This document shows positions 8,191 through 21,919 of a stretch of 64,000 bases of DNA, in pieces. Origin of the DNA: an uncultured Clostridia bacterium. Its GTDB lineage: Bacteria > Bacillota > Clostridia > Christensenellales > Borkfalkiaceae. The position numbers and the translations under genes were made by a program. The stretch is taken from assembly GCA_949283125.1 (NCBI GenBank), contig CASDRK010000011.1, forward strand, positions 23,363 through 87,362, read 5' to 3'. A model generated the notes under the pieces. It ran no database searches and was not told the DNA's origin. It saw nothing but the letters and a program-made list of their open reading frames with translations. The stretch's first letter is position 1, and every line of letters starts with the position of its first letter.

Positions 8191-9497
8191 AAAGAAGCAT
8201 CAAAGCGCTTGCGGTACTCGTGCTCGCCGTGGGCGCTTTTTTCATATCGGGAGCATGGCTTTCGGGACTGCCGCGCGGCACTACGGTGGCCGGCGCGGAC
8301 GTGGGCGGAATGTCGCGCGCGGCGGCCGTCGCCGCCGCGCGCGTGCGCATACGCGAGAGACTTAAGGACAAAGAGCTGGTGATATGCGCCGGCGAACACA
8401 CCTATCGCTTCACGTATCCCGAATTTGATTTCACTGACGACCTGCCCGAGCTCGTCGCCTCCATACGCAGGCGCGGGGCATACTCTCCGCGCGTCTGCGT
8501 CAGGCTGAACGGCGCGCGGCGCATTGCCGAAAACATCTGCTCGCGGCTCGACCGCGCGTTGCGCGAACCCTGCGCCCGCTTTTTTAGGCAGGGTCTGCCG
8601 TTTGCGTACGACGAGGGCTGCGACGGGGCGCAAGGCGACCGCGCCGCGCTGCTGGCCGATATCCGCCGCTCGCTCAACGGCGACTTTAGCGCGGTGAAAG
8701 TCCGCGTCCGTCCGCTCGCGCGGAAAAAGTCGATCGGCGACGTAAAACGTGAAACGTCGCTGCTGTGTTCGTTCACCACCTATTTCGATGCGGACAACGC
8801 TCCGCGCGCGGCAAACATAGCGCTGGCCGCGTCAAAGCTGAACGGCAGCGTGCTGGAGCCCGGGCAGACCTTTTCCTTCAACGGCGCGGTCGGGCCGCGC
8901 ACCGAGGAGCGCGGCTTCGTCTCCGCAAAGATAATTTCGGGAGGGCGATTTACGGACGGCGTGGGCGGAGGGGTCTGTCAGGTCTCTACCACGCTCTACA
9001 ACGCCGCCCTGCTGTCGGGGCTGAAGATAGAGGAGTATCACCCCCATTCGCTCAGGGTGGGGTATGTGGCGCCCTCGCGCGACGCGATGGTCAGCGGAAC
9101 GAGCTGCGATCTCAAGTTTGCAAATTGCGGCCGTCTGCCCGTATATATCCGCGCCGAAGTCTGCGGCGGGGCCGTCACGTGCCGCATTTACGGCCTGCCG
9201 GACGGGGTGGAGAGGTCGTTCTTATCGCGCGTTACAGGCTCGCTGCCCCGCCCCGCCGACGTGGTGGAGGAGGGCGAGGAAGCCCTGCTTTCGCCGGGGT
9301 GCGAGGGTACTGTCAGCGAGGGCTATTTAGTGGAGGTCAAAGGCGGGGTGCGGCGCGAAAGGCTGGTGCGCAGGGACAGGTATGCCGGCGTCCCCGCCGT
9401 GCGGCGCGCGCCGCGCGGCGGGGACGCGCCGGCGGAAGACGGACAGTCCGGGCAAAAATCCCCTGGCGCCGCCGCCAAAAGTCAAGTAATTTTATAG
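8187..9497 (+). CDS. VanW-family protein (N-terminal membrane anchor); 3' end remodelled by the element insertion
   Basis: 436 aa. VanW-like core ..FSFNGAVGPRTEERGF...GGGVCQVSTTLYNAALLSGL.IEEYHPHS... TTG start overlaps the upstream stop. The last 7 codons come from the inserted element. Confidence 0.85.
   Translation: MKRSIKALAVLVLAVGAFFISGAWLSGLPRGTTVAGADVGGMSRAAAVAAARVRIRERLKDKELVICAGEHTYRFTYPEFDFTDDLPELVASIRRRGAYSPRVCVRLNGARRIAENICSRLDRALREPCARFFRQGLPFAYDEGCDGAQGDRAALLADIRRSLNGDFSAVKVRVRPLARKKSIGDVKRETSLLCSFTTYFDADNAPRAANIALAASKLNGSVLEPGQTFSFNGAVGPRTEERGFVSAKIISGGRFTDGVGGGVCQVSTTLYNAALLSGLKIEEYHPHSLRVGYVAPSRDAMVSGTSCDLKFANCGRLPVYIRAEVCGGAVTCRIYGLPDGVERSFLSRVTGSLPRPADVVEEGEEALLSPGCEGTVSEGYLVEVKGGVRRERLVRRDRYAGVPAVRRAPRGGDAPAEDGQSGQKSPGAAAKSQVIL
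9460..9477. repeat. Left copy of the 18-bp direct repeat CCCCTGGCGCCGCCGCCA (attL-like)
   Basis: Identical 18-mer at 21770-21787. It sits exactly at the GC-content break. Confidence 0.8.
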
Positions 9498-9578
9498 AAT
9501 TTTTTTAGAAATTCAAAAAAAATTTTTAGCTTGCGTTATAATCGGTATTGTATAAGTCTTTCGGGAAAGACTTATTAA

Positions 9579-9617
9579 CAAAAACGGGTACGACCTTACA
9601 GGGCATACCCGTTTTTA
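9579..9617. terminator. Bidirectional rho-independent terminator (AAAAACGGGTA...TACCCGTTTTT)
   Basis: 7-bp stem ACGGGTA/TACCCGT with an A-run upstream and a T-run downstream. It lies between vanW and the transposase gene. Confidence 0.55.
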
Positions 9618-9626
9618 TTACACGAC

Positions 9627-9648
9627 AAAAAGCCGCGCTTTGGCGGCT
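9627..9648 (-). terminator. Rho-independent terminator downstream of the transposase gene
   Basis: The minus strand reads AGCCGC-caaagc-GCGGCT followed by TTTTTG. Confidence 0.55.
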
Positions 9649-9658
9649 GTAAACATTT

Positions 9659-9676
9659 TTGAAAGTACACTTTCAA
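9659..9676. repeat. 18-bp palindrome TTGAAAGTACACTTTCAA, copy 1 of 3
   Basis: Perfect 8+8 inverted repeat with a 2-nt centre. The same motif recurs at 12809-12826 and 14678-14695. Confidence 0.9.
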
Positions 9677-9686
9677 AAAACTACTA

Positions 9687-10784
9687 TTAAAGAGAAGCAA
9701 CGGCAGTTGCGAACATTTCCGCAGAAGTGCCGAAGCCGAATATTTCACGAGGGTAAGCATTTACCCACCGCGCGACTTCCTGCACGCGCTTTTCGCTTAC
9801 CTTTGAAAAGTCCGTGCCTTTCGGGAGCAACCGCCTAATATCGCGGTTGATACGCTCGTTAGAGCCACGCTCGCACGAAGTGTACGGGTGACAGTAATAA
9901 ACCGCCGTACGTCTGCCGCTGTAAACGGAGCGTTCCAGCCCTGCGAAGTCCGAGAACTCCGAGCCGTTATCAACGGTAATGCTTTTGAACAGCGTACGAA
10001 ACTTTTTACCGTAACGCCGTTCGAGTTTATCAAGGTACTGCACGACCGTTGCCGCCTTTCGGTTCGGCATTTTCATGATAATTTCGTAGCGCGTCGCCCG
10101 CTCGGTCAACACCAAAAGCACGTTGCGGGTGTACTGCCGCCCGACAACGCAGTCCATTTCCCAATGCCCGAAATTACGGCGCAGGAGAATGTCGGCGGGA
10201 CGGCGTTCAATACTCGTACCCTTCGGCGGGCGTTTCGCCTGCGTTTTCTTGTAATGCTTTTTACGCTGTCCCACGGGCAAATGCTCGGAGCGGATATTCA
10301 TAAACAGCCCCTGCGCAATATAGCGGTACATTGTCGTTTTACTCACAACCGTTTTGCAGAGATTATCGCGCTTGATTTCACCCGCGACAGCGGCAGGGGA
10401 AATTTTATCAACGCAGACCCGCTTTTCAACGTAGCGTATAAAATCGTAGTCGTTGCCAACCTTTAAGGGCGCACCGTGTGCCGTTTTATTCAGCTGATAC
10501 TTTTCTTCCGCAACGTTCGAGCTGTAACCTTTTACAAACTTGTAATGCCGTTCGCCCCAATAGTCGGTATAACTGTACCGCTTGTATGTATATTCGCCGC
10601 GCTTCAATTCGTTATACACGGTCGCAAGGCATATGCCAAGCTGTTTTGCTATCTGTCGTTTGCTCAACCCTGCATTGTACAAAGCTTCCAACTGCAAACG
10701 CATATTCCAATCCACATTCTTCGTACCTTTGTTTTTCATTTCCGTTTGTTCCGTCCTTTTTTCCGTAGTGTCCGTAGTTTCCAT
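9687..10784 (-). CDS. IS30-family DDE transposase
   Basis: 365 aa. N-terminal HTH (..GLSKRQIAKQLGICLATVYNELKRG..) and the DDE triad context HWEMDCV ... ITVDNGSEF ... ERGSNERINRDIRR typical of IS30 transposases. Confidence 0.9.
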   Translation of the reverse strand: METTDTTEKRTEQTEMKNKGTKNVDWNMRLQLEALYNAGLSKRQIAKQLGICLATVYNELKRGEYTYKRYSYTDYWGERHYKFVKGYSSNVAEEKYQLNKTAHGAPLKVGNDYDFIRYVEKRVCVDKISPAAVAGEIKRDNLCKTVVSKTTMYRYIAQGLFMNIRSEHLPVGQRKKHYKKTQAKRPPKGTSIERRPADILLRRNFGHWEMDCVVGRQYTRNVLLVLTERATRYEIIMKMPNRKAATVVQYLDKLERRYGKKFRTLFKSITVDNGSEFSDFAGLERSVYSGRRTAVYYCHPYTSCERGSNERINRDIRRLLPKGTDFSKVSEKRVQEVARWVNAYPREIFGFGTSAEMFATAVASL

Positions 10785-10847
10785 AGTGTCCGATATGATA
10801 TTATACGCCGAAAAACGCCGCTAAAAACGCTTAAAATCGGCGTAGAG

Positions 10848-10917
10848 AGCACAACGCGCCACCTTGTTATAGACGAGCGGCGGCTTGCGCCGCCGTAACA
10901 AGGTGGCGCGTTGTGCT
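10848..10917. repeat. Nested perfect hairpin: 22-bp stem enclosing a 7-bp GC stem
   Basis: AGCACAACGCGCCACCTTGTTA (10848-10869) is the exact reverse complement of 10896-10917. The loop contains CGGCGGC-ttgc-GCCGCCG. Confidence 0.9.
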
Positions 10918-11114
10918 TGACCTGTTTTACCTGCCGTACGGGGCGATTTTTCGTGCCAACGGGGGCGCGGACAGGTCTCGCGCCCCCGTTTTATCGTCTT
11001 GCAAATGAACATTGCCGCATAAATGCGGCAAAAAAACACCCTGCGGGACATGCCGAAAAGCGCCGTATGTCAAGCCACAGGCGCAATAAAATGAACGATT
11101 GAGTTTTTACGCAA

Positions 11115-12245
11115 TCACGCAACCGACAAGGGGTTGCAGAGTAAGTCGGTAATCGACATTTGCTTGCTAAATCGGTGTCGCAGAATATCCCGCTCCCAAT
11201 TCACAACGTCGTCAAAGACAACGTATTTAAGCACAAAGTCGTTTGTCATCTCGGTTATAATGTCGTTTGCCGACAACTTCATGCAAATTTCCGTGGGTAT
11301 GCCACGGCTATAAACTATTCGTTCATTTGTCTTGCCTATGTATTTCAATATATAGTCCACGCTGTCGCCCGCTTCAAGTTGCGACTGCGTTATCTCCTCA
11401 AAATCGTTGCGCCCGTACCATTGCGCAAAGAAACTGTTTTCGTTCCTCGTCTGCATTTGCCCCTGCGCCGTGCTGTAATCGGTCTTTTCTTCGCACCTGC
11501 CGAGCATTTCACCCGCAGGGACATATAACAGACCGTGGAAGTGCAAACGCCCTGTTTCGGGCGCACGCTCGAATACCCCCATATACCGCCAGCCACGGCG
11601 GGTGTGGAGGTTTGAAAGGCAACGGCGCAATTTGCGCCTAAATGTTTCCTCGTCGTGCTTTTTATCGTCGTATGTAAAGGTTACGAAAAAATTCCAACGA
11701 TTGAGGTATGCCTTGCGGCGGAAACGCTTTTTGCGGTGGTGCAGATTGTTCAGCTTGCGCTTTACGCGCTCCGCAATATCCACCTTTGCGATCTCCTCTT
11801 CGGTAAACAGAGTGCGCAAGCCGTCATGGATATAGTCCGACATGGGCTTTTCCTTTTTCCTGTCGCGCAAGCCCTTATTATAGCCCTGCGTGAACAAATC
11901 GTCAAAGAGAATGTCAAAGACGGAGCGAGTGCCGCCAAAACCTTTATTCGACGATATATCAATGCGCATAGCGGCGGTGCGCTTGCCGCGCTCGTAGTCC
12001 CTGCGCTTATCGCGCATAAAGCGGTCATAAACGATTTCCTTTTGTTCGTCCGTAAGCTGTTTAGGACGTCTGCGGCGGTTAGATTTGCGGGCAGGCTTTA
12101 CCGCAGGGGCTTGCGCATGGCGGCAGGGCGTGGCTATCAGATGACGACCGTCATTATAGATTTTATAGGTTTTCGGCGTGTCGTCGAAAAAGGGAAATGG
12201 ACAACCCTGTAAGTCGTCCGATTGAATAAGATTTGCAACACCCAT
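11115..12245 (-). CDS. HUH-superfamily rolling-circle replication initiator (Rep)
   Basis: 376 aa. The three RCR motifs appear in order: FFVTFTYD (motif 1), RLHFHGLLYV (HUH, motif 2) and VDYILKYIGK (catalytic Tyr, motif 3). SD GAGGTGG upstream. Confidence 0.75.
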   Translation of the reverse strand: MGVANLIQSDDLQGCPFPFFDDTPKTYKIYNDGRHLIATPCRHAQAPAVKPARKSNRRRRPKQLTDEQKEIVYDRFMRDKRRDYERGKRTAAMRIDISSNKGFGGTRSVFDILFDDLFTQGYNKGLRDRKKEKPMSDYIHDGLRTLFTEEEIAKVDIAERVKRKLNNLHHRKKRFRRKAYLNRWNFFVTFTYDDKKHDEETFRRKLRRCLSNLHTRRGWRYMGVFERAPETGRLHFHGLLYVPAGEMLGRCEEKTDYSTAQGQMQTRNENSFFAQWYGRNDFEEITQSQLEAGDSVDYILKYIGKTNERIVYSRGIPTEICMKLSANDIITEMTNDFVLKYVVFDDVVNWERDILRHRFSKQMSITDLLCNPLSVA

Positions 12246-12327
12246 TTTACCACCTCAAAAATCAAATTTAATAAACACCGCCATGTGGAATAGCACCCCT
12301 GCGGGGAAATGTTATTAAGAAAAATAA

Positions 12328-12594
12328 TTATTTGCCTTGCCGCGCCCTACGTTCTGCCGCACAATCGCGCATAGCGCACATAAAGCCCTTTGCATATTGC
12401 ACACTGTTGCGCGCAGATTTACCCGACTGCGCAAGTCGCTTATTGTCGTCTATATCGCTCATCATCTCACGCTTACGCTTTTTGCTTGCCTTCGGGTACT
12501 CGCGGTACGCCTTAACACCGAAGCGGTAGCCATATGCAAATGGCGTTTTCTGTTCGCTGTTATATTTCAGTTTTTCATCTACCGAACGCTTCAT
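12328..12594 (-). CDS. Small basic hypothetical protein (88 aa)
   Basis: ORF translationally coupled (ATGA) to the upstream ORF. Lys/Arg-rich, with an N-terminal Y-x-S-E-Q-K..F-A-Y-G motif shared with two other element proteins. Confidence 0.5.
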   Translation of the reverse strand: MKRSVDEKLKYNSEQKTPFAYGYRFGVKAYREYPKASKKRKREMMSDIDDNKRLAQSGKSARNSVQYAKGFMCAMRDCAAERRARQGK

Positions 12595-12794
12595 ACCGCC
12601 ATAATCTCCCGTGCAACTTCTACGACCTCATCACCGCGAAGAGTAACACGGTAACGGTAGCCGCGAACCTTTACGCTGTGCGCCGTGTTGCCGTTATCAA
12701 GCGGAACGGAGCGCACAAGTTCTATATAGCGCCGCTGTGTCTGCACAGCACGCGCAAGCGTGCTTAAAAGGTGAAGGTATTGATATTGTGTCAT
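12591..12794 (-). CDS. Small hypothetical protein (67 aa from the internal ATG with SD AAAGGGGG)
   Basis: The ORF track gives 12591..12845. I prefer the ATG at 12794 because the 18-bp palindrome and the SD lie immediately upstream of it. Confidence 0.45.
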   Translation of the reverse strand: MTQYQYLHLLSTLARAVQTQRRYIELVRSVPLDNGNTAHSVKVRGYRYRVTLRGDEVVEVAREIMAV

Positions 12795-12808
12795 ATGTAA
12801 CCCCCTTT

Positions 12809-12826
12809 TTGAAAGTGTACTTTCAA
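12809..12826. repeat. 18-bp palindrome TTGAAAGTGTACTTTCAA, copy 2 of 3
   Basis: On the minus strand it is directly followed by AAAAGGGGGTTACATATG, the SD and start of the 67-aa ORF. Confidence 0.9.
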
Positions 12827-12833
12827 TTTTGAA

Positions 12834-12853
12834 TTGCAAAATCAATTTTGCAA
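12834..12853. promoter_or_regulatory. Second operator-like palindrome TTGCAAAAT-ca-ATTTTGCAA
   Basis: Perfect 9-bp arms. It lies between the 18-bp palindrome and a plus-strand consensus promoter. Confidence 0.6.
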
Positions 12854-12868
12854 ATAACCGAAAAATTG

Positions 12869-12897
12869 TTGACTTTATAGCCGCAAATACATATAAT
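12869..12897 (+). promoter_or_regulatory. Near-consensus sigma-A promoter TTGACT - 17 nt - TATAAT
   Basis: -35 at 12869-12874 and -10 at 12892-12897. It points away from all element ORFs, towards a terminator about 105 nt downstream. Confidence 0.55.
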
Positions 12898-12903
12898 ATC
12901 TAA

Positions 12904-13027
12904 CAGTGGTGAACGCTTCAAAGAACATTGAGGTACACCAAAGCACTGTATAATAAGTGATAGTAACTGCAAAACGGTCTATATGAAAAACAGTGGACAC
13001 AGCGGCAAAAGCCGCTGTTATTTTTTT
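12904..13027 (+). ncRNA. Candidate ~120-nt small RNA (promoter-to-terminator unit, no convincing ORF)
   Basis: Bounded by the consensus promoter and an intrinsic terminator. AACAGTGG occurs at both 12902-12909 and 12989-12996. The 3' end overlaps the stop region of the convergent 156-aa gene. Confidence 0.4.
12999..13027 (+). terminator. Rho-independent terminator ACAGCGGC-aaaa-GCCGCTGT plus TATTTTTTT
   Basis: 8-bp GC-rich stem followed by a T-run on the plus strand. Confidence 0.7.
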
Positions 13028-13488
13028 CTTAAAATATATTTAATTTTTGCCATATCATTATTAGACAAATGGGCAACATTAGTAATATATCTATCTACTT
13101 CATAAATTTCGGAACGGTCAATCCACGTACGCTTATTACTGATTTGCCGTTCATAATCATTATCAAGAATAATAGTCTTTGTAGTCCGCTTTTCAACGGG
13201 TGCAACAAGCACACGACCCTTTTTATCGGTATCAATAACGGCACAAACGCGAGGTTTAGAAATAGCGTTACCAAAATGATTATCATTTGTCATAATTAAA
13301 TCAGGGTCGTTAAATGAACGATTTTTAAGGCTATTTAAATATTCCAACCTACTTTCGGCATACTCTCTTCTACTTGCCGTCAAAACTTTACCGTCAGAAG
13401 TTTTACCCGTTTTAAGTATATTATTATAATGCTTAATCTTTTCATTAACTGAATAATAAACATAATTGGTCTTACCGTGTTTAAACAT
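13018..13488 (-). CDS. AT-rich cargo protein (156 aa); C-terminal ~95 aa resemble the MazF/PemK toxin fold by eye
   Basis: SD TGAGGTGG. ..DLIMTNDNHFGNAISKPRVCAVIDTDKKGRVLVAPV...WIDRSEIYEVDRYITNVAHLSNNDMAKIKYIL parallels EndoA/MazF ..GDVYFADL..GVRPVLVIQND...IVAAIT...ILLEQIRTIDKQRL.DKIGHLDDEMMDKVDEAL (from memory). It has the lowest GC in the element. Confidence 0.55.
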   Translation of the reverse strand: MFKHGKTNYVYYSVNEKIKHYNNILKTGKTSDGKVLTASRREYAESRLEYLNSLKNRSFNDPDLIMTNDNHFGNAISKPRVCAVIDTDKKGRVLVAPVEKRTTKTIILDNDYERQISNKRTWIDRSEIYEVDRYITNVAHLSNNDMAKIKYILRKK

Positions 13489-13605
13489 ATAACCACCTCA
13501 TTATTCTAATTTTAATGCCTGTCGGAGCTTTACCGCCCCGACAGGCTTTTATATATCACCCCTGCGGGGAGTAATACCCGTTCGGGAATGACCGTTAAAG
13601 AAAGA

Positions 13606-13851
13606 CTACTGCCCGTCTTTGGCGTTTTGTTTTGCCTTTAATTTTTCCCTTTTGCGCACCGCCCGTTGATACCGCTTGTCCTCGCGGTCAAGCCTGCGGA
13701 ACTGCCGTTTCATATTCTTGAATATGTACGCCAAAATCTTTTTGTTGTACTTTTCAGGCACAAAATCGGCGGTGTCGAGCGTTTGCGCAAAAGTGGCATA
13801 ATACGTTTCAAGGCAGGTGTTAATCAGCTTGTTTTTGTTGTAATTTATCAT
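13606..13851 (-). CDS. Small hypothetical protein (81 aa) with a basic C-terminus
   Basis: ORF start overlaps the stop of the Zot-like gene (ATGA coupling). Confidence 0.5.
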   Translation of the reverse strand: MINYNKNKLINTCLETYYATFAQTLDTADFVPEKYNKKILAYIFKNMKRQFRRLDREDKRYQRAVRKREKLKAKQNAKDGQ

Positions 13852-14666
13852 GCCGCTTTACCTCGCGTATAAAAGCCGTCGGGTAGTTCGTCGTCCATAG
13901 TCTGCAAATACCTTACATAGCCGTCTATCGTGCAGTCGTTCGGTTCGGCTTGCATATAATCGTAATCGCTGTGCAGATGACCGTCGTAAAACTTCGGCTT
14001 GCAATTTTGGCTGTCGTAACAGGCAAACACGTTGTAATCGGCTTTGACGACCTCTTCCGTGTAGCATTCCTTGTCCTTTTTGCCGCTCTGCATATAGCGG
14101 TCAAAAAGACTACTGTTATCTATGCGGCGTATCAGCCATTTAAGAGCTTTAACGCGCCCGTAGCCGTCGTATTTGAATTGCAGGTTTACAATCTCAATGA
14201 ACTGCGCAAGCTCGCGCACGTTCACGTCTATGAGCATAGGACGTTGAGTATCGAGAAACACGTCTAAATCTAAATGCCCGTGTTGCTCGTACCAACGCGA
14301 TTGCCAATCGGGAAAATAGCGCGACATACGGCTGTTAAGATATTTTTGCGCTTCGGTTATACAGATACACTCGTGCGGCAAATTGAAATGCGTTTTTACA
14401 AAATCGTTTGCATAACCTAAACGGTAGGGATTTATGCGGCGGGAAAGTCGAGGACTATACCCGAATTTGTGCATTACAATATCGTAATTTGCCGATACGC
14501 AATGCATGGGCACGGTCTGTATGCCGTCAAAGCCCTGTTGCATTTTCGCCAATATTTCCCGCCGCATAGCGGTATTCCGTTGTTTGTCAAACGCCGCCAT
14601 GCTTGCTATATGCGTTAAAAAACAGGTCTTGCCCGTTCGCGGCGGGGCAAATATTATCGTTATCAT
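13848..14666 (-). CDS. Zot-like (inovirus pI-type) P-loop NTPase without a transmembrane segment
   Basis: 272 aa. Walker A FAPPRTGKT and Walker B-like ICITEAQKY, then ..EQHGHLDLDVFLDTQRPMLIDVNVRELAQ.., which mirrors the Zot-family HRH.G.D(I/V)..(I/L)TQ...(I/L)D core. Confidence 0.7.
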   Translation of the reverse strand: MITIIFAPPRTGKTCFLTHIASMAAFDKQRNTAMRREILAKMQQGFDGIQTVPMHCVSANYDIVMHKFGYSPRLSRRINPYRLGYANDFVKTHFNLPHECICITEAQKYLNSRMSRYFPDWQSRWYEQHGHLDLDVFLDTQRPMLIDVNVRELAQFIEIVNLQFKYDGYGRVKALKWLIRRIDNSSLFDRYMQSGKKDKECYTEEVVKADYNVFACYDSQNCKPKFYDGHLHSDYDYMQAEPNDCTIDGYVRYLQTMDDELPDGFYTRGKAA

Positions 14667-14677
14667 AAACCGCCTTT

Positions 14678-14695
14678 TTGAAAGTGCACTTTCAA
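14678..14695. repeat. 18-bp palindrome TTGAAAGTGCACTTTCAA, copy 3 of 3
   Basis: On the minus strand it is directly followed by AAAAGGCGGTTTATG, the SD and start of the Zot-like gene. It abuts the stop of the 707-aa gene. Confidence 0.9.
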
Positions 14696-14696
14696 T

Positions 14697-16820
14697 TTAT
14701 CCGCCCGCAATGAGCGAATAGCACCAGCCCGCAAACGTGTTTATAAAGAACACGTCAAGGACTATCGTCAAGGCGAGGAACAAAAGCATTATCCACCAAG
14801 GCAGACCGCAAGCGGTACACAGCACAAGGCGAAGGAGCAACAGCACAACTATTTCCGCAAGCACAACAATCACATACGCCCACCAAGGAATATCGCTATC
14901 AATATCGACGGACGGGGTGATTGCATTGACAATGTCAATGGGCGAAGATACGGCGGGGATAACGTAATATTTGCCGTCGTCATTAAATGTCAGCTGTATC
15001 ACGTCAAAGTCCAAAAATACGCTCTCCCAAGCGCGGTAGGCTTGCCCGCTTATTTTGGTATCTCCGCCTAAAAAGCCTGTGCCAAGTTCCCAAATCTCAA
15101 CGGGAGCAGAATAGTAGTCAGTTGTTGCGAAGTGGAACAGCACGACAACTTTTTCTTCGTCGTCGGGTATGGACGTATCAACGGTAATTGCTTCGTCGTA
15201 ATAATCGCGCAGAGCCTGTACATCACCCGAATTTATCAAGAGCCGTTCGCTCACCTCTGCCGAAGTGCCTTTCAAATCGTCCTCTTCAATTATCTCAATG
15301 GGCGCGACCGTGCGGCTCTCTTCTTCGGGAATATCGCCAAAAATAGTGTCCCAAAGTCCCCAATTCCGCAAATTGTCCCAAAAGTCGGGGGCAGTTTCCT
15401 GCCAGCTCGAAAGGTGTTGCAAGTCTAAATCTGCGTCGAAATCGTAATAGCTGTAACCTTGCTGTATCTTGCCGTATTTGCTGTCAACCTTGCGGTAATC
15501 GTCTATGTCGGCGGCGAACAAATCAGCGCTGATAGTGCCGTCTTTAATAGGGAGCGCACCGCCGTCATAACTTTTATCATAGTTTTTTATGTACTCGTAC
15601 AGTTGATTGCTCTCAACACCGCCAATGCTGACGATATCGGCGTATGGATCGTATTCCGCGATATTATCTACCTGAAAAAGATAATATAAAGCATTTGCGC
15701 GAGGGGAAAGATAAGTATGATAAATATTCCACCCCCATGTTGCACCTTGAATACCAACACCCATACCGCTTGAATAAAAATCTTGAATAAGAGAATATCC
15801 AATATCTTTATTAATTTCAGGAACGCCCAAAGAACTTAATTGAGTATTAGTCTGTTCACCAAGCCAAGACTTTGCCGCAGAAAAAAACTTATCGTTGCTC
15901 GTTACGATTATATCTTTGGTCTTGTATTCGTACCATTCGGCTTTAATGCGTTGCAGTTCGCCGTAGGTATCGAACAGGCGTTTCGGCACAGCAAAATACA
16001 CACTATCAAGCTGATTTTGATAACCTGCGCCCTTGCTCGAAGTTTCGGAGCGGTAAAAGGTATGTCTTACGTCAAGTTCCACGGCTTCGGCTTGTCCCGT
16101 GCTCAAACAGGTAAACGGAAATTTTTCACTGTCGCCGTAGCCCTCGGCATAGCCGCTGAACTGATAATACTTGTTCACAAGGTATTCATGCGCGTTTGTC
16201 GCACTTCCACCTATCTCGAACAACTCAATGCCCGATATGTGGTAATATCTGTTGCCCGTCTTTTGCTCGTGCTCGCGCTCGGCATTGAGTATGATATTTT
16301 CTTCGTCCACAATGCGGAATTTCAAGAAGAGATTTGCATACTCGCCGCCGCTTGAATTGCAAAATTTAAGACTGAATTTTTGGTAGTCCTTGACGTCACC
16401 CACATTGCCTTGTTCGTTATCGTAATAAAAATCAGTGGAAATCTGAATTTTATTTTGTTTCAAAAATACGGCATAATCCAAAAGAGCAGGATTATACACA
16501 TAAACGTACAGCGCATAATTGCCGAAGCCGTTTTCATACTGCGAATAACAATACTCAACAAAAGTTATCATTCGTGTAGTTCCGTGCGCGTTCTTTGGAT
16601 AATCAGCTATATCAAACGGCTCGCCGTCTATGGTGGAGCTTTGCAAATCGTCAAGGGCGTTGGTGTCGTCATACTTCAATTCTTTGCCAGTGTCGGCATA
16701 AACATAGGGGTCGGAAACTTGTCCGCAAATTATACTCGACAATAAACATAAGATGACAATTATATACGGCAAGAACGTTCGCATTTTTGCTTTAAACTTT
16801 TTCATTAAAATTGCACGCAT
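14697..16820 (-). CDS. Large secreted protein with C-terminal multi-helix membrane anchor (candidate adsorption/minor virion protein)
   Basis: 707 aa. N-terminal signal-like segment (..FLPYIIVILCLLSSIICGQ..) and a C-terminal ~65 aa hydrophobic region (..WWAYVIVVLAEIVVLLLL...WWIMLLFLALTIVLDVFFI..). SD AAGGTGAGG. It sits just upstream of the Zot-like gene, as gIII/gVI do in inoviruses. Confidence 0.6.
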   Translation of the reverse strand: MRAILMKKFKAKMRTFLPYIIVILCLLSSIICGQVSDPYVYADTGKELKYDDTNALDDLQSSTIDGEPFDIADYPKNAHGTTRMITFVEYCYSQYENGFGNYALYVYVYNPALLDYAVFLKQNKIQISTDFYYDNEQGNVGDVKDYQKFSLKFCNSSGGEYANLFLKFRIVDEENIILNAEREHEQKTGNRYYHISGIELFEIGGSATNAHEYLVNKYYQFSGYAEGYGDSEKFPFTCLSTGQAEAVELDVRHTFYRSETSSKGAGYQNQLDSVYFAVPKRLFDTYGELQRIKAEWYEYKTKDIIVTSNDKFFSAAKSWLGEQTNTQLSSLGVPEINKDIGYSLIQDFYSSGMGVGIQGATWGWNIYHTYLSPRANALYYLFQVDNIAEYDPYADIVSIGGVESNQLYEYIKNYDKSYDGGALPIKDGTISADLFAADIDDYRKVDSKYGKIQQGYSYYDFDADLDLQHLSSWQETAPDFWDNLRNWGLWDTIFGDIPEEESRTVAPIEIIEEDDLKGTSAEVSERLLINSGDVQALRDYYDEAITVDTSIPDDEEKVVVLFHFATTDYYSAPVEIWELGTGFLGGDTKISGQAYRAWESVFLDFDVIQLTFNDDGKYYVIPAVSSPIDIVNAITPSVDIDSDIPWWAYVIVVLAEIVVLLLLRLVLCTACGLPWWIMLLFLALTIVLDVFFINTFAGWCYSLIAGG

Positions 16821-16839
16821 AACCTCACCTTAATACTAC

Positions 16840-17421
16840 TCAAAAGAAAAGGTTAGAAGGTGTTACTGAAAAATCATAAACCATAAACCAAAGATTTACC
16901 GAGCTCTTATCAGATGTTATGGATATTCCAAAATAGCGATAACTGTCGTTTGAATTATCTACAATCTCAATATCACCGCCATATTTTTGCTCGACGAGAG
17001 TTTCAACCGAAAAATCAAACGGTATATAAAGTTCAAACCCGTCAGCATTACGCTTAATATCAAAATATTGAGTGTAATCATTCAAACTATCAACGTCACC
17101 ATAAAACCAATAAAGTTCGTCATTATATTTAAACGTAAAATCATTGGCGGGATTGGATGTGATGGTAACAGAATAATTTACATCATTCCCGATAAGCGAT
17201 TTAACAGAAAAATTACCTTTCTTACCTCTAACTAATTGAATATTGCCGTCTTCGGTATTCGAATAATAACGCTCTCCGTTATACTCAACATAAAACGTTA
17301 CACCGCTTTCGCGCAGAGCGAAATATGCTATGCCAACGGCAATACCCAAAATAACAAGCGCCACAACCAAATACAACAATATCTTTCCAAAAACACTGGC
17401 TACACCGCTACGATCGCCCAT
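16840..17421 (-). CDS. Membrane-anchored protein (193 aa), beta-rich ectodomain
   Basis: N-terminal TM ..ILLYLVVALVILGIAVGIAYFAL.. and SD GAGGTG. Confidence 0.55.
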   Translation of the reverse strand: MGDRSGVASVFGKILLYLVVALVILGIAVGIAYFALRESGVTFYVEYNGERYYSNTEDGNIQLVRGKKGNFSVKSLIGNDVNYSVTITSNPANDFTFKYNDELYWFYGDVDSLNDYTQYFDIKRNADGFELYIPFDFSVETLVEQKYGGDIEIVDNSNDSYRYFGISITSDKSSVNLWFMVYDFSVTPSNLFF

Positions 17422-17435
17422 AAATTCACCTCAAA

Positions 17436-18674
17436 TCAAAAGATTATAGTATCCTTATTCAAGCTAACGTTTGTAACAGGCACGATAAACGAAGATACAC
17501 CTGATACATCTGTCAGATATATATACTTCGTCTCCGAAAATTTCTCCGAAGTATCTTCATTAGTCACGTTAACGCTTATTTTGAAAAACGCCGTCTCCTC
17601 AAACCCTTCTACAATGCGACTATCTGTAAAAAGTTCGCGGACTTCTTCCAATACTGCTTTTTTCTGCGTAGCGCTAAGCGAAGAAATGCCGCCGACGCAA
17701 TACTTTGATACAAAATCTTCAAACGATGTGTTGAAGGTACAGATGCGGTTATAATAGGTATCATAGGTAGGGTAGGTGTTTTCATTGACAGCGCCGGTGG
17801 AGTCGATATAATTGCCGCCGGAAATCAACCAACCGTGACCATAGCTCAACTCTCTTTCATCATACCCCACGCCGTAATCGTCGCACATACTCGAGAAGTC
17901 TACTTCGTATTGCGTTGATACATTTACTGATATAGCGGGAACAATTGTGCCGGCAGAACGAAAAACCTGATAAGAAATAGAGCTATCCGCCCCCGTATCT
18001 TTAAGGACTATGTCAGAACCGTTAATAACCACATCGGTTATTTTGCAACGATAATCTATGCGGCATGTATCGGTAATGGAAGGATTATTGACGGAAGATA
18101 CCGTAAGAGTGATAGGACAACCGAAAGCCTGACTGCATGATACCGTACAAGATAAGGTATCACTTGAAGGGCTTATCTGTATAAAATCCGCTTCGGTCAC
18201 GCCGATACCTGCAAGCTCGGACGTAGCATAATCGCCGTCACCGTCATTGTACCAAGCTTCTTCCGTATAATACGGATTGCCGTCTTCATTCTCGGCGGTC
18301 TCATTCCACGAAACAGACCATACCAAATCCTTAATGGTCGCTTCTTCGGGATTGACCGTTGCCGTGACGACTTGCGCATTCTCCGCCATAGGCGATATAC
18401 CGTATTCGGCATATTTCTCCACAGGAATATTCATGCTCGTAAGCGCAATCGCGCCGCCCGGCTGACTTTCGCCTATCACCATGCTGCCCTCGTCAACAGG
18501 CTGTTTGCCTTCTGCGGACTGTTCAATCTGTTCGCCTTTGCCCCAACTGTTAAACCATGTGGCAATATCGCTGTTCGTGAACCAGCTCGAACCTACGCCA
18601 CACGCAATCACAATAGCGAGCGCAAGCACGATTGCAATAACCGCAACTATGGCGTTCTTTGTTGATTTTCTCAT
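17436..18674 (-). CDS. Membrane-anchored protein (412 aa), large ectodomain
   Basis: N-terminal TM ..AIVAVIAIVLALAIVIACGV.. and SD AAGGAG. No recognisable family. Confidence 0.6.
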   Translation of the reverse strand: MRKSTKNAIVAVIAIVLALAIVIACGVGSSWFTNSDIATWFNSWGKGEQIEQSAEGKQPVDEGSMVIGESQPGGAIALTSMNIPVEKYAEYGISPMAENAQVVTATVNPEEATIKDLVWSVSWNETAENEDGNPYYTEEAWYNDGDGDYATSELAGIGVTEADFIQISPSSDTLSCTVSCSQAFGCPITLTVSSVNNPSITDTCRIDYRCKITDVVINGSDIVLKDTGADSSISYQVFRSAGTIVPAISVNVSTQYEVDFSSMCDDYGVGYDERELSYGHGWLISGGNYIDSTGAVNENTYPTYDTYYNRICTFNTSFEDFVSKYCVGGISSLSATQKKAVLEEVRELFTDSRIVEGFEETAFFKISVNVTNEDTSEKFSETKYIYLTDVSGVSSFIVPVTNVSLNKDTIIF

Positions 18675-18696
18675 TATTGTTTATCTCCTTGAAAAT

Positions 18697-18894
18697 TTAA
18701 TATTTTTTAGCTTTTTTACAGAGTAAAGCATACTCATAATCGTGGTGTTCTTTCATTGCACGTTCAACGGCTTTTAAATCACCGCGCCGTGCCGCCGTGT
18801 CTAACTTCTGTTCACTACGCTCGTACATACCCTGCAACTTCGCCGCAGAGGTAGTACGGGCAAGCTTCTTTTGTTTTCGCGTGAACCAAATCAT
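18697..18894 (-). CDS. Small hypothetical protein (65 aa)
   Basis: ORF in the co-oriented array; charged and helical-looking. Confidence 0.4.
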   Translation of the reverse strand: MIWFTRKQKKLARTTSAAKLQGMYERSEQKLDTAARRGDLKAVERAMKEHHDYEYALLCKKAKKY

Positions 18895-18896
18895 AG

Positions 18897-19217
18897 TTAA
18901 AACTTCACCGACTTGCTACGCATAGAACGGCGAACGCCTTTATTTTCATACGAACGAATTGTATTACGAACATAGCCGCGCGCTTCGTTCTTATATAAAT
19001 CGGCAAGCGTATCGCGCGCGGACTGATAACCGTATGTAACATCAACACACCCCGAACCCATACCGCGATAACCCTTACCGTCCTTACGGCGTTTACCTGT
19101 CAACTGTACCTGATACCCACCGTATGCGCCCGAAACCCGTAATTCATTGCCCGTGCGTAAGCAATATTTTTCGTTCAGCCTATCGACTTCGGCTTGTAAA
19201 TCTCTTTTTGTAATCAT
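18897..19217 (-). CDS. Small hypothetical protein (106 aa)
   Basis: SD GAGGTG 6 nt upstream of the ATG. Confidence 0.5.
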   Translation of the reverse strand: MITKRDLQAEVDRLNEKYCLRTGNELRVSGAYGGYQVQLTGKRRKDGKGYRGMGSGCVDVTYGYQSARDTLADLYKNEARGYVRNTIRSYENKGVRRSMRSKSVKF

Positions 19218-19226
19218 AACAACACC

Positions 19227-19469
19227 TCAACATTTCAGTTTGCCGACCACAACGCCGTTCCCGTCCACGACAAGGCACATATCGCCTTTGCCGCTTGTCT
19301 TTTTCTTCCTACCTGTCGCCTTGCCGCAGACGGAGTTCACGCCGTTGCGGAAAGACTGTTTGCTTTTGCTATCGGGACAATTTACGCGCTTGCCCGCTTT
19401 TGCCGCGGCATACGCACGCCCCATATGGTACGCTTTGCGCTCTTTGGCTGAATAACTTCTCTTTGCCAT
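19227..19469 (-). CDS. Small basic hypothetical protein (80 aa from MAKRSYSAKERKAY..)
   Basis: The ORF track gives 19227..19487. The ATG at 19469 avoids overlap with the upstream ORF. It carries the Y-S-x-K-E-R-K-A-Y-x-x-G motif. Confidence 0.45.
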   Translation of the reverse strand: MAKRSYSAKERKAYHMGRAYAAAKAGKRVNCPDSKSKQSFRNGVNSVCGKATGRKKKTSGKGDMCLVVDGNGVVVGKLKC

Positions 19470-19474
19470 ATGAA

Positions 19475-19684
19475 TTAAACCTCGCAATTTTTTATTTTTT
19501 GTTTTACTTCGTCATAGCTTTCGGCTGCAAATATGCCCGTGCCTTTGCCCTTTTCGTCAAGCCCCGTTTCCACAAATGTTCCGTCTTTGTCCTCAATCAC
19601 GCCCGTTACAATTCGTACAGGTACCATACACCGTTCACGCGCCTTGTTGTTACTCCACATTGTAAGTTCCAAAAACCCTTTCAT
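19475..19684 (-). CDS. Small hypothetical protein (69 aa)
   Basis: SD GAGGTG upstream. Confidence 0.45.
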   Translation of the reverse strand: MKGFLELTMWSNNKARERCMVPVRIVTGVIEDKDGTFVETGLDEKGKGTGIFAAESYDEVKQKIKNCEV

Positions 19685-19717
19685 TTTTTACACCTCGTTT
19701 CCTTATTGTCCTTATTT

Positions 19718-19750
19718 AACACCCTTGCAGAGAGCAACACCCTTACAGGG
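19718..19750. repeat. Two 13-bp direct repeats AACACCCTT(G/A)CAG with 18-bp period
   Basis: Copies at 19718-19730 and 19736-19748, in the spacer upstream of the 69-aa ORF. Confidence 0.8.
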
Positions 19751-19830
19751 AATTTTACTGTTAAGAAATGATATATAGCCGTCTGCCCGCCTGCGGAGTT
19801 TTCCACAGACGGGTTGACGGTATCTATCTT

Positions 19831-20298
19831 TTATGCCGCCGTTTCGGGGTCTGCCTCAACGGTACGTATCTGTTTATTGACCATATTCATAAGCATAGTG
19901 AGCAGGTCGACGTCGCTTTTGCCCGTCGGCTTGACTTCGGCGTGCCATACAACGCCGTTTTCGTCTACGGTGTTGACTGTGTAAACGGTGGTATGCTGTT
20001 TCTTGCCGTTGAACTCCGTTACCTTGTCGATAATATCGAGTTCGGCGGCGGGGCTTACGTCAAAGACCAAATCGAGAGGGACATAACCGCCCTTATCCTT
20101 CGGCGAGAAATCAACAGCAATACGACGACCGCGCAATGTGCCGCAGAGCTTATACTTAAAGTAAAGTCTGCCGTCATTCGTCACGTACTGATTGCCGCGC
20201 TTATCGAGCACGGGTTCACGGCGTATTACAAAATTGCCGTTCCTCATTTCCGCTACCTGTTCCATAGTTCCGTTCGTTGCCTTCTTTTCAGTTGCCAT
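19831..20298 (-). CDS. Hypothetical protein (155 aa), beta-rich; possible ssDNA-binding role is speculative
   Basis: SD AAAGGAG. No motif recognised. Confidence 0.5.
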   Translation of the reverse strand: MATEKKATNGTMEQVAEMRNGNFVIRREPVLDKRGNQYVTNDGRLYFKYKLCGTLRGRRIAVDFSPKDKGGYVPLDLVFDVSPAAELDIIDKVTEFNGKKQHTTVYTVNTVDENGVVWHAEVKPTGKSDVDLLTMLMNMVNKQIRTVEADPETAA

Positions 20299-20501
20299 AA
20301 TTTTAATAATCTCCTTTGGCAGTCGGTTGCCAGCCGTCCGATTTTTGCCCCCTTACGGGGAGTGGTGGGGACTGCAAGACGCCACCCTTGCACGAACGCT
20401 TGCCGCGCTCCTTTGGGCTATGTCCCCATAATGGCGGGGTGCAGAGGTCACCCCGCTTTACAGGAGGAATGCCCGATTGCTCGGGCTATGGAAAGCCGTC
20501 T
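20299..20501 (-). other. 200-nt GC-rich, highly structured non-coding spacer
   Basis: Several stems, for example GCGGGGTG-cagagg-TCACCCCGC (about 20433-20456), GCCCGA-ttgc-TCGGGC (20471-20486) and CCCCCTTACGGGG (20348-20360). No plausible ORF. Confidence 0.6.
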
Positions 20502-20741
20502 TTATTCTGTCGCCGCTTCAAGATTTTCAATAGCTTCACTAAGGCTATCAAGGGCATAGTCCATATTATTTATGTTATCGCCCGCAATTTCGCCGCGTTC
20601 GCTTTCCTGTATGCCCGCGGGCATATTATCGTAATATTCCTGTTCTTCGTCGCGCAACTGCTCAATGGCAGTTTGTATATCTTGTAACTGTTCAATCAGT
20701 TTGTAAAGTTCATTACGCCGTGTTTTATTCATTTTCGCCAC
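20502..20741 (-). CDS. Small acidic coiled-coil protein (79 aa)
   Basis: SD AAAGGACGGTGG. Heptad-like ..ELYKLIEQLQDIQTAIEQLRDEEQEYYD... Confidence 0.5.
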   Translation of the reverse strand: MAKMNKTRRNELYKLIEQLQDIQTAIEQLRDEEQEYYDNMPAGIQESERGEIAGDNINNMDYALDSLSEAIENLEAATE

Positions 20742-20747
20742 CGTCCT

Positions 20748-21371
20748 TTATTCTTCCTCAACCATAGGAGCATTGCAGTCCATACACATAATGTTTACGC
20801 GCTTTGTCGCCCTGACCGATTGCCCGCATATGGGGCAAATATACTTGCGCGTGCTCGTGTTCTTCGTTATCTGACATTTCATAACGGGTAAGCGATAAAT
20901 GACCGTAGGCGGGTTTGCCGCCGCAAATTCGGCTATCATTGCCGCCGTTTCGTCCGTCAATGTCGTATGCGACCAGCCGATTTTTGCCACGCACTCAACC
21001 TTTAAGCCATGTTCTTCGGCTATCTTCTTGAATAGCTTGTTGTGGTAGTTACCCGACCGCGACGTGTCTTTCATTTCGTGAACCGTCGCAAACTGATGGC
21101 ACATTTCGTGTATCAGTGTTGCCGATATCTCACCAATAGGGCGGTGAAGCTGCTGTGCCGTCATATTCAGTTCGTGTTCGCCGTCGTCGTCGGTGTTTTC
21201 ACGCCAAACTTTGCCCTGCGACCACCAGCCATTTGTTTTATTGCGCTCGTCCGTCTGCACAGTGATTACAGGCTTTACAAGCTCCCCGCCGAACAGTTCG
21301 GCGTTTATATGGTCGTATAACTTGCCGAGATATGCGACCGTCTCAATGTACTTGTCCGTTCCGTTTAACAT
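20748..21371 (-). CDS. SprT-like zinc metalloprotease with C-terminal zinc ribbon
   Basis: 207 aa. HEMCH (HExxH) is embedded in ..ISATLIHEMCHQF.. and the C-terminus has CPICG...CMDCN. Confidence 0.7.
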   Translation of the reverse strand: MLNGTDKYIETVAYLGKLYDHINAELFGGELVKPVITVQTDERNKTNGWWSQGKVWRENTDDDGEHELNMTAQQLHRPIGEISATLIHEMCHQFATVHEMKDTSRSGNYHNKLFKKIAEEHGLKVECVAKIGWSHTTLTDETAAMIAEFAAANPPTVIYRLPVMKCQITKNTSTRKYICPICGQSVRATKRVNIMCMDCNAPMVEEE

Positions 21372-21437
21372 TGTTTCGATACCTCACTTTTGTTTATTTG
21401 CCCGTATAGCCGTTAGCACAGCTTTTAATTAAATTGC

Positions 21438-21668
21438 TTAACGACAAACTACTCTCAAATACTCTTTCGCGTCGTCAATACTCTCATGCTCGACAATGTC
21501 ATAATCAGGGGCTTGAATAGTGATAACATTATTCTCAAACCCAGATTGAACCTCAAGCAATAAATTTGCTTTAAGTAAATCTGCCGCAACTCCGAAGAAT
21601 GCAAGAATTTTACCGTTGTCGTCCACAGCTACACGCACATTTGTGTTCCTGTTAATTTTAAATTTCAT
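21438..21668 (-). CDS. Small hypothetical protein (76 aa), first ORF at the right end of the element
   Basis: SD AAAGGAG upstream. Confidence 0.45.
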   Translation of the reverse strand: MKFKINRNTNVRVAVDDNGKILAFFGVAADLLKANLLLEVQSGFENNVITIQAPDYDIVEHESIDDAKEYLRVVCR

Positions 21669-21713
21669 TTCCGTTTCTCCTTTGCGTAATGCCGCCGCCC
21701 GTATTAGAACAAT

Positions 21714-21753
21714 AAAAAAACGGTATAGAGCAGTTCCTTTACTGTTCTATACC
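21714..21753 (-). terminator. Hairpin plus T7 run on the minus strand at the right end of the element
   Basis: The minus strand reads GGTATAGAACAGT-aaagga-ACTGCTCTATACC followed by GTTTTTTT (one mismatch in a 13-bp stem). Confidence 0.5.
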
Positions 21754-21769
21754 ATTGTAAAACTATACC

Positions 21770-21787
21770 CCCCTGGCGCCGCCGCCA
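21770..21787. repeat. Right copy of the 18-bp direct repeat CCCCTGGCGCCGCCGCCA (attR-like)
   Basis: Identical to 9460-9477. Confidence 0.8.
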
Positions 21788-21806
21788 TATTGGGCGGCCA
21801 AAACAA

Positions 21807-21835
21807 TTGTCTTTTGGCGTGTTATATGATATAAT
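21807..21835 (+). promoter_or_regulatory. Candidate sigma-A promoter for plsX (TTGTCT - 17 nt - TATAAT)
   Basis: -35 at 21807-21812 and -10 at 21830-21835, about 85 nt upstream of plsX. Confidence 0.5.
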
Positions 21836-21919
21836 CATATAAGCGGACGGTGGCTGTCCGCCCGCGGCGCGGGCGGGCCGGCCGGCGCAGACAATAATCC
21901 TGACCGGGGGTTTTTACTC

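Follow-up and report, generated by a model that had tools for sequence, protein, structure and literature searches.

A predicted small-RNA gene that travels with a convergent, possibly toxin-encoding gene in inovirus-like prophages of gut Clostridia

The window analyzed in this study is a 64,000-nucleotide (nt) stretch of DNA from an uncultured Clostridia bacterium (GTDB lineage Bacteria; Bacillota; Clostridia; Christensenellales; Borkfalkiaceae; assembly GCA_949283125.1, contig CASDRK010000011.1, positions 23,363 to 87,362 of the forward strand), and all positions given without a locus name refer to it. It holds an inovirus-like prophage element (approximately 9476-21900), inserted between a VanW-like gene and plsX, whose genes lie on the minus strand and whose guanine-plus-cytosine (GC) content is 40-50%, compared with about 60% in the flanks. 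Within the element, a gene for a protein of 156 amino acids (aa), termed p156 (13018-13488, minus strand, 31% GC), is met tail to tail by a predicted small-RNA gene on the plus strand. These two genes, their relatives and the way in which they might act upon each other are described here.

The small-RNA gene begins with a promoter of the sigma-A/sigma-70 type (TTGACT-17-TATAAT, 12869-12897, plus strand) that agrees with the consensus at 11 of 12 positions, and an intrinsic terminator (12999-13027, plus strand) follows at a distance of about 100 nt, consisting of a stem at 12999-13018 (ACAGCGGC-AAAA-GCCGCTGT), the bases TA and seven T residues. Both signals had been proposed in the initial annotation of this DNA and were recovered here. 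The same annotation took the promoter for the only strong plus-strand signal of the element, which is incorrect, as a plus-strand promoter with 12 of 12 consensus positions lies at 17785-17812, antisense within a 412-aa gene and with no terminator nearby. Transcription of the small RNA is predicted to start near 12903-12905 and would yield an RNA of about 121 nt (12903-13027, plus strand), close to the 120 nt first suggested. The predicted RNA comprises a 5' hairpin (12908-12939, plus strand; GGUG..CACC enclosing CUUCAA/UUGAGG) that is present in both the minimum-free-energy and the centroid structures, a 'unit' hairpin followed by the A-rich linker GAAAAACAGUG (12952-12990, plus strand; GUGAUAG-UAACU..GGU-CUAU, recognized by covariance model R1), and the terminator. 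The 5' hairpin is preceded by a GAACGC motif which, in a comparison of 5' modules, was common to the delta-type relatives described below. The sequence AACAGTGG, reported earlier at the 5' end of the interval and just before the terminator, was located at 12902 and 12989; it has one further copy in the 64 kb and belongs to a recurring CAGUG boundary motif of the RNA hairpin units. The predicted 125-nt RNA folds with -36.5 kcal/mol (z = -4.3). Its 3' end overlaps the convergent AT-rich gene as annotated, the last base of the terminator stem (13018) being the third base of the p156 stop codon. Searches of Rfam release 15 with the small-RNA intervals of the window element and eight related loci returned no match at E <= 1-5, and the RNA family is new to Rfam. 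The annotation had seen no open reading frame (ORF) with a ribosome-binding site in the interval; among the related loci compared, neither an ORF nor a ribosome-binding site was conserved across it on either strand, no conserved coding frame was found, and a small protein encoded there was rejected for this reason.

Relatives of the locus were collected with the replication protein (Rep) of the prophage from GTDB genomes (L001-L008), from the contigs of 27 p156 homologues (L009-L021) and from JGI/ENA metagenomes (L022-L032), and the locus of one distant p156 member, 27% identical, was included as L033. Scans of IMG/VR with p156 and with Rep gave no relatives, and a full HMMER scan of 1.8 billion representative proteins placed the p156 family in 58 clusters. 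Conservation was counted over 24 distinct loci or variants, in which the adjacent protein is 27-100% identical. In all 24, the small RNA and p156 are convergent, and a promoter on the antisense strand is followed by 57-160 nt of structured sequence and then by a terminator at the p156 stop, with the end of the terminator stem -16 to +8 nt from the stop codon; promoter, length class, structure and terminator are kept in every p156-bearing relative. The -35 hexamer is TTGACT in 19 variants and TTGACA in three, the -10 hexamer is TATAAT in 18, and pairwise identity between loci is 92% in the promoter hexamers compared with 40% in the 17-nt spacers. Of the nine bases that follow the terminator stem, a mean of 7.3 are T on the small-RNA strand and 2.3 are U on the p156 strand, and the T-rich tract is kept even where it is non-coding. 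The stem itself varies in sequence from locus to locus (ACAGCGGC, AACGGCGG, AACGACGAC, ACAGCAGT and CACGAC, among others) while the 3' arms remain complementary. Because the U-tract is one-sided, the hairpin is expected to terminate the small RNA and not the p156 mRNA. Conservation in 24 distinct loci is the decisive evidence that these signals did not arise by chance, and on such comparative sequence grounds the small RNA is very probably real.

The fold is conserved as well. Many of the RNAs carry one or two unit hairpins of the form GUGAUAG-(U/C/G)AACU...GGU-CUAUC, with an A-rich linker and CAGUG after each of them; a unit measures about 45-60 nt, some unit-bearing RNAs also carry a partial third one, and the window RNA has a single unit. 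Covariance model R1 scored the window unit at 42.6 bits (E = 1.3e-8), and its 20 matches in 242 kb all fell within small-RNA loci and antisense to p156, including one in L004, a locus outside the training set. Pairing holds in 90% of the pair cells of the unit alignment, compared with 25-40% when the partner columns are slid, and compensatory UA to CG changes convert GAUAG/CUAUC to GACAG/CUGUC in L010 and L023. The inner stems of the units can be formed by unrelated sequences, such as GUUAUGUUG/CAACAUAAU in L027. Another architecture, the delta type (L016, L017, L025, L026, L028, L030 and L031), retains four helices, in which 13 of 31 pairs have changed on both sides, as have several terminator pairs of the delta set. 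Over 23 variants the mean fold z was -4.3, and it can be said in general that the RNA sequence evolves fast and the stems are retained. The loops and single strands of the variants also show some recurrent features. They were noted in the delta loci and in L012: the delta-type RNAs keep a hairpin CACCGC-UUCCUUA-GCGGUG that displays UUCCU in its loop, an anti-Shine-Dalgarno-like sequence which is also the cleavage motif reported for MazF-mt3/mt6, and the gamma-type RNAs have a single-stranded GCCCCCGC run.

The distribution of the RNA among related phages ties it to p156. When L025 was compared with the window, identities were 91% for zot (the Zot-like morphogenesis ATPase gene), 90% for the 81-aa gene, 98.5% for the 67-aa gene, 97.7% for the 88-aa gene and 88% for Rep, whereas p156 was only 55% identical and the small RNA was of a different type; near-identical flanks around a divergent pair indicate that p156 and its RNA were exchanged as a block. 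The exchangeable cassette, which includes the small-RNA promoter, the small RNA, p156 and its upstream leader, extends approximately from 12844 to 13571. The points at which metagenome contigs diverge are 12843/12844, 12898 and 13555-13571, and in one sample the window-type cassette had a depth of about 9, compared with about 40 for the flanks. Coexisting phage variants carry alternative alleles of the cassette. Most loci have the small-RNA gene between p156 and the Rep module, and relocated copies keep the pairing. In L004, the p156 homologue is found 4 kb from Rep, before the genes of a 73-aa and a 687-aa protein (structural genes), and is accompanied by a small-RNA gene whose promoter is TTGACT-17-TACTAT, whose RNA has a unit hairpin and whose terminator sits on the stop codon of p156. 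In L033, the homologue stands opposite a different operon and faces TTGATT-17-TATAAT, an interval of about 60 nt and a terminator. The intergenic regions upstream of Rep in L004 and L006 contained neither an antisense promoter nor a small RNA, and no p156 homologue was present in the 13 kb of L006 sequence examined. By these comparisons of sequence, the RNA follows p156 and not the Rep operon, and the two are inherited, exchanged and relocated together. A recent one-off insertion of an AT-rich p156 was rejected as an explanation, since homologues of normal composition with the same partner RNA occur across the clade.

Two further loci deserve mention with the cassette. The p156 homologues of L031 (2212-2661) and L032 (1633-2081) are broken, in one case through a premature stop and in the other through a frameshift, and the small-RNA locus is intact, which could reflect either decay of a toxin or an assembly error at low coverage. 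In L012, the stretch that separates the Rep module from the cassette, upstream of the small-RNA promoter, holds a 246-aa cysteine-rich gene on the antisense strand (3527-4267, minus strand) that has no Pfam match.

Members of the p156 family are 148-164 aa long and rich in lysine and arginine. AlphaFold2, run with the family alignment, gave a model of p156 with a confidence score (pLDDT) of 91.5, made up of a helical hairpin at the N terminus, a small beta-barrel and a helix at the C terminus. The barrel and the C-terminal helix resemble the MazF/PemK/Kid proteins (PF02452), and a G-x-x-x-S-K-P-R-hydrophobic-strand motif of p156 is similar to the G-S-E-x-x-x-R-P-hydrophobic-strand motif of MazF; the helical hairpin (residues 14-55) is an addition not seen in that family. 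In p156, H4, K17, R47, S77-K78-P79-R80 and D88 are invariant. Matches to PF02452 below the cut-off were obtained for 5 of the 25 close members and for 3 of the 19 distant ones, the best in the family with E = 6e-4. Among viral structures (BFVD), the top matches were annotated 'PemK-like protein' and 'Endoribonuclease' (probability 0.98-0.99, E about 0.02-0.03), and ToxN chains ranked 4, 6 and 8 of 350,000 PDB chains with the full model (E 0.5-0.7, template modelling (TM) score 0.26-0.29). For the C-terminal domain, MazF-mt3 was the top PDB match (probability 0.89, TM 0.54, E 0.18), and generic SH3-like domains scored similarly in this fold comparison. Nothing was found for p156 in NCBIfam or PADLOC, and the ToxN/AbiQ, CptN and TenpN families gave no Pfam or PADLOC match at E <= 0.1-1 for 24-25 close and 18 distant members. 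From these indications, which agree with one another but are weak, a MazF/PemK/ToxN-like fold of p156 is likely but unproven, and with such a fold p156 may be an endoribonuclease-type toxin. Type II modules of the MazF/PemK kind have the gene of a dedicated protein antitoxin immediately upstream of the toxin gene and in one operon with it, and p156 differs in having none; the 81-aa gene upstream of it was considered for this role and rejected, as it is coupled to zot and remains beside it in L004 and L006, which have p156 in another place or lack it.

The initial annotation also drew attention to two perfect palindromes beside the small-RNA gene. Their coordinates and perfect arms were confirmed, but each has a non-palindromic 2-nt centre and neither is a palindrome in the strict sense. 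Palindrome 1 (TTGAAAGTnnACTTTCAA, that is TTGAAAGT-GT-ACTTTCAA; 12809-12826) has 8-nt arms and is not specific to this region, with three copies in the window (9659-9676, 12809-12826 and 14678-14695) where 0.1 would be expected, and 48 copies over the element and L001-L032. It precedes by 0-6 nt the Shine-Dalgarno sequences of module-leading genes, zot and the 67-aa and 88-aa genes among them, the copy at 12809-12826 being directly upstream of the ribosome-binding site of the 67-aa gene, and it always recurs just past the stop codon of the transposase gene, ahead of a terminator. In L004, it stands before Rep, 4 kb from the small RNA. Mosaic junctions occur at its edge, and it resembles an abutted IS30 inverted-repeat junction. 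Judging from this distribution, palindrome 1 is a separate motif of the phage clade that lies outside the small-RNA cassette, and it could be a site for the IS30-like transposase or for recombination, or a hairpin that stabilizes mRNA 5' ends. Palindrome 2 (TTGCAAAAT-CA-ATTTTGCAA, 12834-12853) has 9-nt arms, lies upstream of the small-RNA promoter and occurs once in the window. It is perfect only in the window's lineage, relatives retaining its right arm and an AAATCA core, and its centre coincides with the mosaic junction at 12843/12844 and marks the boundary of the cassette.

The reading we favour, although we give it slightly less than an even chance, is that these genes form a two-gene accessory cassette of inovirus-like gut-Clostridia prophages, in which p156 is restrained by a cis-antisense small RNA. 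The p156 mRNA would lack a terminator of its own, as suggested by the hairpin without a U-tract on the p156 strand, and would run through the small-RNA gene, which would make it complementary to the small RNA over its full length; in L033, the next terminator in the gene sense is situated past the small-RNA promoter. The small RNA, if abundant, would pair with the 3' part of this read-through transcript and keep p156 in check as an RNA antitoxin or regulator, by RNase III-type cleavage of the duplex together with collision of the transcribing polymerases. The likely pay-off for the phage would be its maintenance (addiction) or the exclusion of competitors. Antisense action is favoured over protein binding because of the convergent layout, which is that of type I toxin-antitoxin (TA) systems, because the RNA types do not track the p156 phylogeny, and because the RNA sequence changes fast with its stems kept. 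Within-type identity of p156 exceeds between-type identity by 0.08 in both halves of the protein, which is itself mosaic. Divergence of the RNA fits a cis-antisense role, since complementarity to the target is automatic. Convergent type I loci with overlapping 3' ends include par of pAD1 (Fst/RNA II) and the txpA/RatA and bsrG/SR4 loci of Bacillus subtilis prophages. The present cassette shares with them a separately promoted, structured and presumably strongly expressed RNA aimed at a gene that here may encode a toxin, and residence on mobile elements of Firmicutes; the 3' ends in those loci overlap or share a terminator, as they would here. It differs from them in that p156 is predicted to be a soluble protein of about 150 aa with a MazF-like fold, while a type I toxin is a hydrophobic peptide of less than 60 aa, in that the overlap is deduced from sequence, and in that RNA motifs are kept across very divergent loci.

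Several results weigh against this reading. Read-through and full overlap of the p156 mRNA are inferred from the lack of a U-tract alone. p156 is predicted to be globular and not a small hydrophobic peptide like the known type I toxins. Conserved sequence motifs, namely GUGAUAGUAACU, GGUCUAU, the A-rich linkers and the UUCCU loops, are not needed for pure cis-antisense action and fit recognition by a protein better. The small-RNA strand is the more stable one in only 14 of 23 variants (p = 0.21), and the delta types fold better on the gene-sense strand; as fold energy is not strand-selective, the strand assignment rests on the promoter and the terminator. As for p156 as a toxin, its Pfam PemK_toxin score of 19.1 bits is below the cut-off of 23.1 bits, Foldseek E-values lie between 0.02 and 0.7 with nothing significant in PDB, a profile search of PDB sequences with the p156 family gave no relevant match, and hhalign against provisional sequences of the MazF proteins of E. 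coli and B. subtilis gave probabilities of 0.1-1.4%. In Logan contigs of low depth and without strand information, drawn from chicken-gut 'RNA-Seq' runs and from others of unknown kind, the small RNA was not enriched. Prediction of trans targets with RNAduplex against translation start regions, a separate test, was noisy and inconsistent and was dropped.

The main rival, to which the conserved motifs point, is a type III-like ribonucleoprotein, in which the small RNA would bind a MazF/ToxN-like p156 through its units and A-rich linkers, block the active site and perhaps be processed by p156 itself; this we consider unlikely. The type III systems ToxIN, CptIN, TenpIN and AbiQ (PMC5086642, PMC3401426) combine a non-coding RNA with a protein of the MazF/Kid/ToxN fold class, to which p156 may also belong, the fold of type III toxins being that of MazF/Kid (PMC5086642), and the ranks of ToxN chains in PDB and of PemK-like endoribonucleases in BFVD point the same way. 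Some variants have repeated units of about 45-60 nt with conserved sequence and A-rich linkers, the unit sequence is kept across proteins of 42-100% identity, the strength of the promoter points to an RNA made in excess, a Rho-independent terminator separates the RNA gene from the protein gene, and both kinds of system are found in gut Firmicutes and mobile elements. However, a type III operon has its promoter, repeats, Rho-independent terminator and toxin ORF on one strand (PMC5086642), and the convergent genes with separate promoters found here break this defining layout. In type III systems, moreover, the precursor of the RNA is cleaved by the toxin, which is held inactive in a closed complex of RNA and protein. 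The units are imperfect and not near-identical repeats (about 27-32 identical columns among 49-60 aligned in five variants, namely four two-unit-type loci and the window) and are missing from the delta-type RNAs and L033, there is no sequence match to ToxN, CptN, TenpN or AbiQ in the Pfam and PADLOC searches described, and the RNA type does not co-vary cleanly with either half of p156. The layout fits the definitions of neither type I nor type III, and a hybrid of the two can be imagined, in which a MazF-fold toxin is neutralized by a convergent small RNA acting both as an antisense RNA and as a protein-binding decoy, the whole being an exchangeable allele cassette among Gram-positive filamentous phages that would serve as an addiction or heteroimmunity determinant. 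Such a hybrid seems to us rather doubtful, if a little less so than a purely type III-like complex.

Other explanations look to replication. The initial annotation compared the layout to a divergent lysogeny/immunity switch or an antisense-RNA control unit, and in a replication/immunity switch the small RNA would be a counter-transcript against read-through or leader RNA of the operon of the 67-aa gene, the 88-aa gene and Rep, with the palindromes as operators. Short constitutive antisense RNAs, such as lambda OOP RNA, RNA II of pMV158 and RNA I of pT181, trigger cleavage or attenuation of convergent or overlapping mRNAs, and those of rolling-circle plasmids act as counter-transcripts (ctRNAs). 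The usual position of the small-RNA gene next to the Rep module would suit such a role. No gene-sense promoter with at least 10 of 12 consensus positions was found in 15 of 16 intergenic regions, so the genes of the Rep module may need read-through RNA with which the small RNA could pair, and the cassette is a variable, allele-like part of otherwise conserved phages, as is the heteroimmunity region of CTXphi. Nevertheless, we regard this switch as very improbable. OOP and the ctRNAs act on cII or on the leaders of rep, while in L004 and L033 the small RNA is away from Rep and still abuts the p156 homologue, and the regions upstream of Rep in L004 and L006 have the palindrome without the small RNA. 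With its 48 copies, palindrome 1 stands in many contexts, palindrome 2 is not kept as a palindrome, and there is no divergent regulator gene. The missing gene-sense promoters and the general or unconserved nature of the palindromes also speak against the divergent switch as annotated; the label of an antisense-RNA control unit remains serviceable, with p156 and not the replication operon as the target. Least probable of all, to the point of being hardly credible, is an element acting at the level of single-stranded DNA, which would be an origin for the complementary strand of the ssoA or Ff minus-origin kind, a signal for packaging or a set of iterons bound by Rep, with promoter- and terminator-like signals that serve primer synthesis or are incidental. 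The template of the transcript would be the presumed viral strand, strong hairpins form on both strands with the delta types folding better in the gene sense, a TAGCGT resembling the CS-6 sequence occurs in some units, and the Ff intergenic region likewise begins right after the last gene. Against these points, the promoter is a linear consensus of the double-strand type with unconserved spacers and is unpaired in the centroid fold of the single-stranded DNA, where it is not in a hairpin, for which reason mimicry of a promoter by single-stranded DNA was rejected. The window RNA has no TAGCGT, which elsewhere lies in stems and not in a terminal loop, the U-tract is kept even where it is non-coding, and the element follows p156 and not Rep, the main intergenic region or the replicon (L004, L033).

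Rep (11115-12245, minus strand) belongs to the REP_ORF2-G2P family (Pfam E = 4e-11), and the minus strand also carries the Zot-like morphogenesis ATPase (13848-14666), a 707-aa adsorption-like protein, the 67-aa gene (ATG at 12794) and an IS30-family DDE transposase (9687-10784). Sequence matching the element is present in chicken-gut metagenomes, and the closest genome found was a metagenome-assembled genome of 'Candidatus Coproplasma excrementavium'. The transposase is a conserved, outward-facing terminal gene in this prophage group, being found downstream of Rep in L001, L002, L003, L005, L008, L016, L018, L019, L026 and L033, and probably serves as the integrase of these inovirus-like prophages. 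The tailed 'IScream phages' of gut Clostridia (PMC12823448) offer a parallel, the phages described here being filamentous. Near the right end of the prophage is a gene with an SprT-like metalloprotease domain (20748-21371, minus strand; Pfam E = 5e-7), whose homologue in the short contig L003 comes after the transposase; this is consistent with a circular phage genome. Promoters with at least 11 of 12 consensus positions number three in the 12.4-kb element, compared with 0.32 expected, and one with 11 of 12 lies in the gene sense within Rep (11905-11877, minus strand). Finally, a hairpin motif CACCCCTGCGGGGA (gene-sense TCCCCGCAGGGGTG) occurs in two intergenic regions (12296-12309 and 13559-13572), its second copy coinciding with the recombination junctions at 13555-13571 and adjoining a long hairpin at 13517-13546. 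Possible roles of this motif are those of an origin or nick site or of a signal for packaging.

A literature search found no small RNA or RNA-antitoxin module for filamentous phages, and the TA system that it found in inoviruses is of type II (PfiAT of Pf4). Surveys for RNA antitoxins depend on a very small hydrophobic toxin in the case of type I and on tandem repeats ahead of a ToxN-like gene in the case of type III (PMC5086642), and neither kind of screen would pick up a convergent small RNA paired with a MazF-like protein. With 24 RNA variants built of modular hairpins and 58 protein clusters, the family provides a small and well-defined set of targets for experiments. Were such a pairing confirmed, RNA would be seen to control toxins in more ways than are now known, and the inoviruses of Gram-positive gut bacteria, which are themselves almost unstudied, would have their first described small RNA and their first described RNA-based module of the TA-like kind. 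As an exchangeable, allele-like part of otherwise conserved phages that coexist in chicken-gut samples, the cassette is a candidate determinant of phage maintenance or competition.

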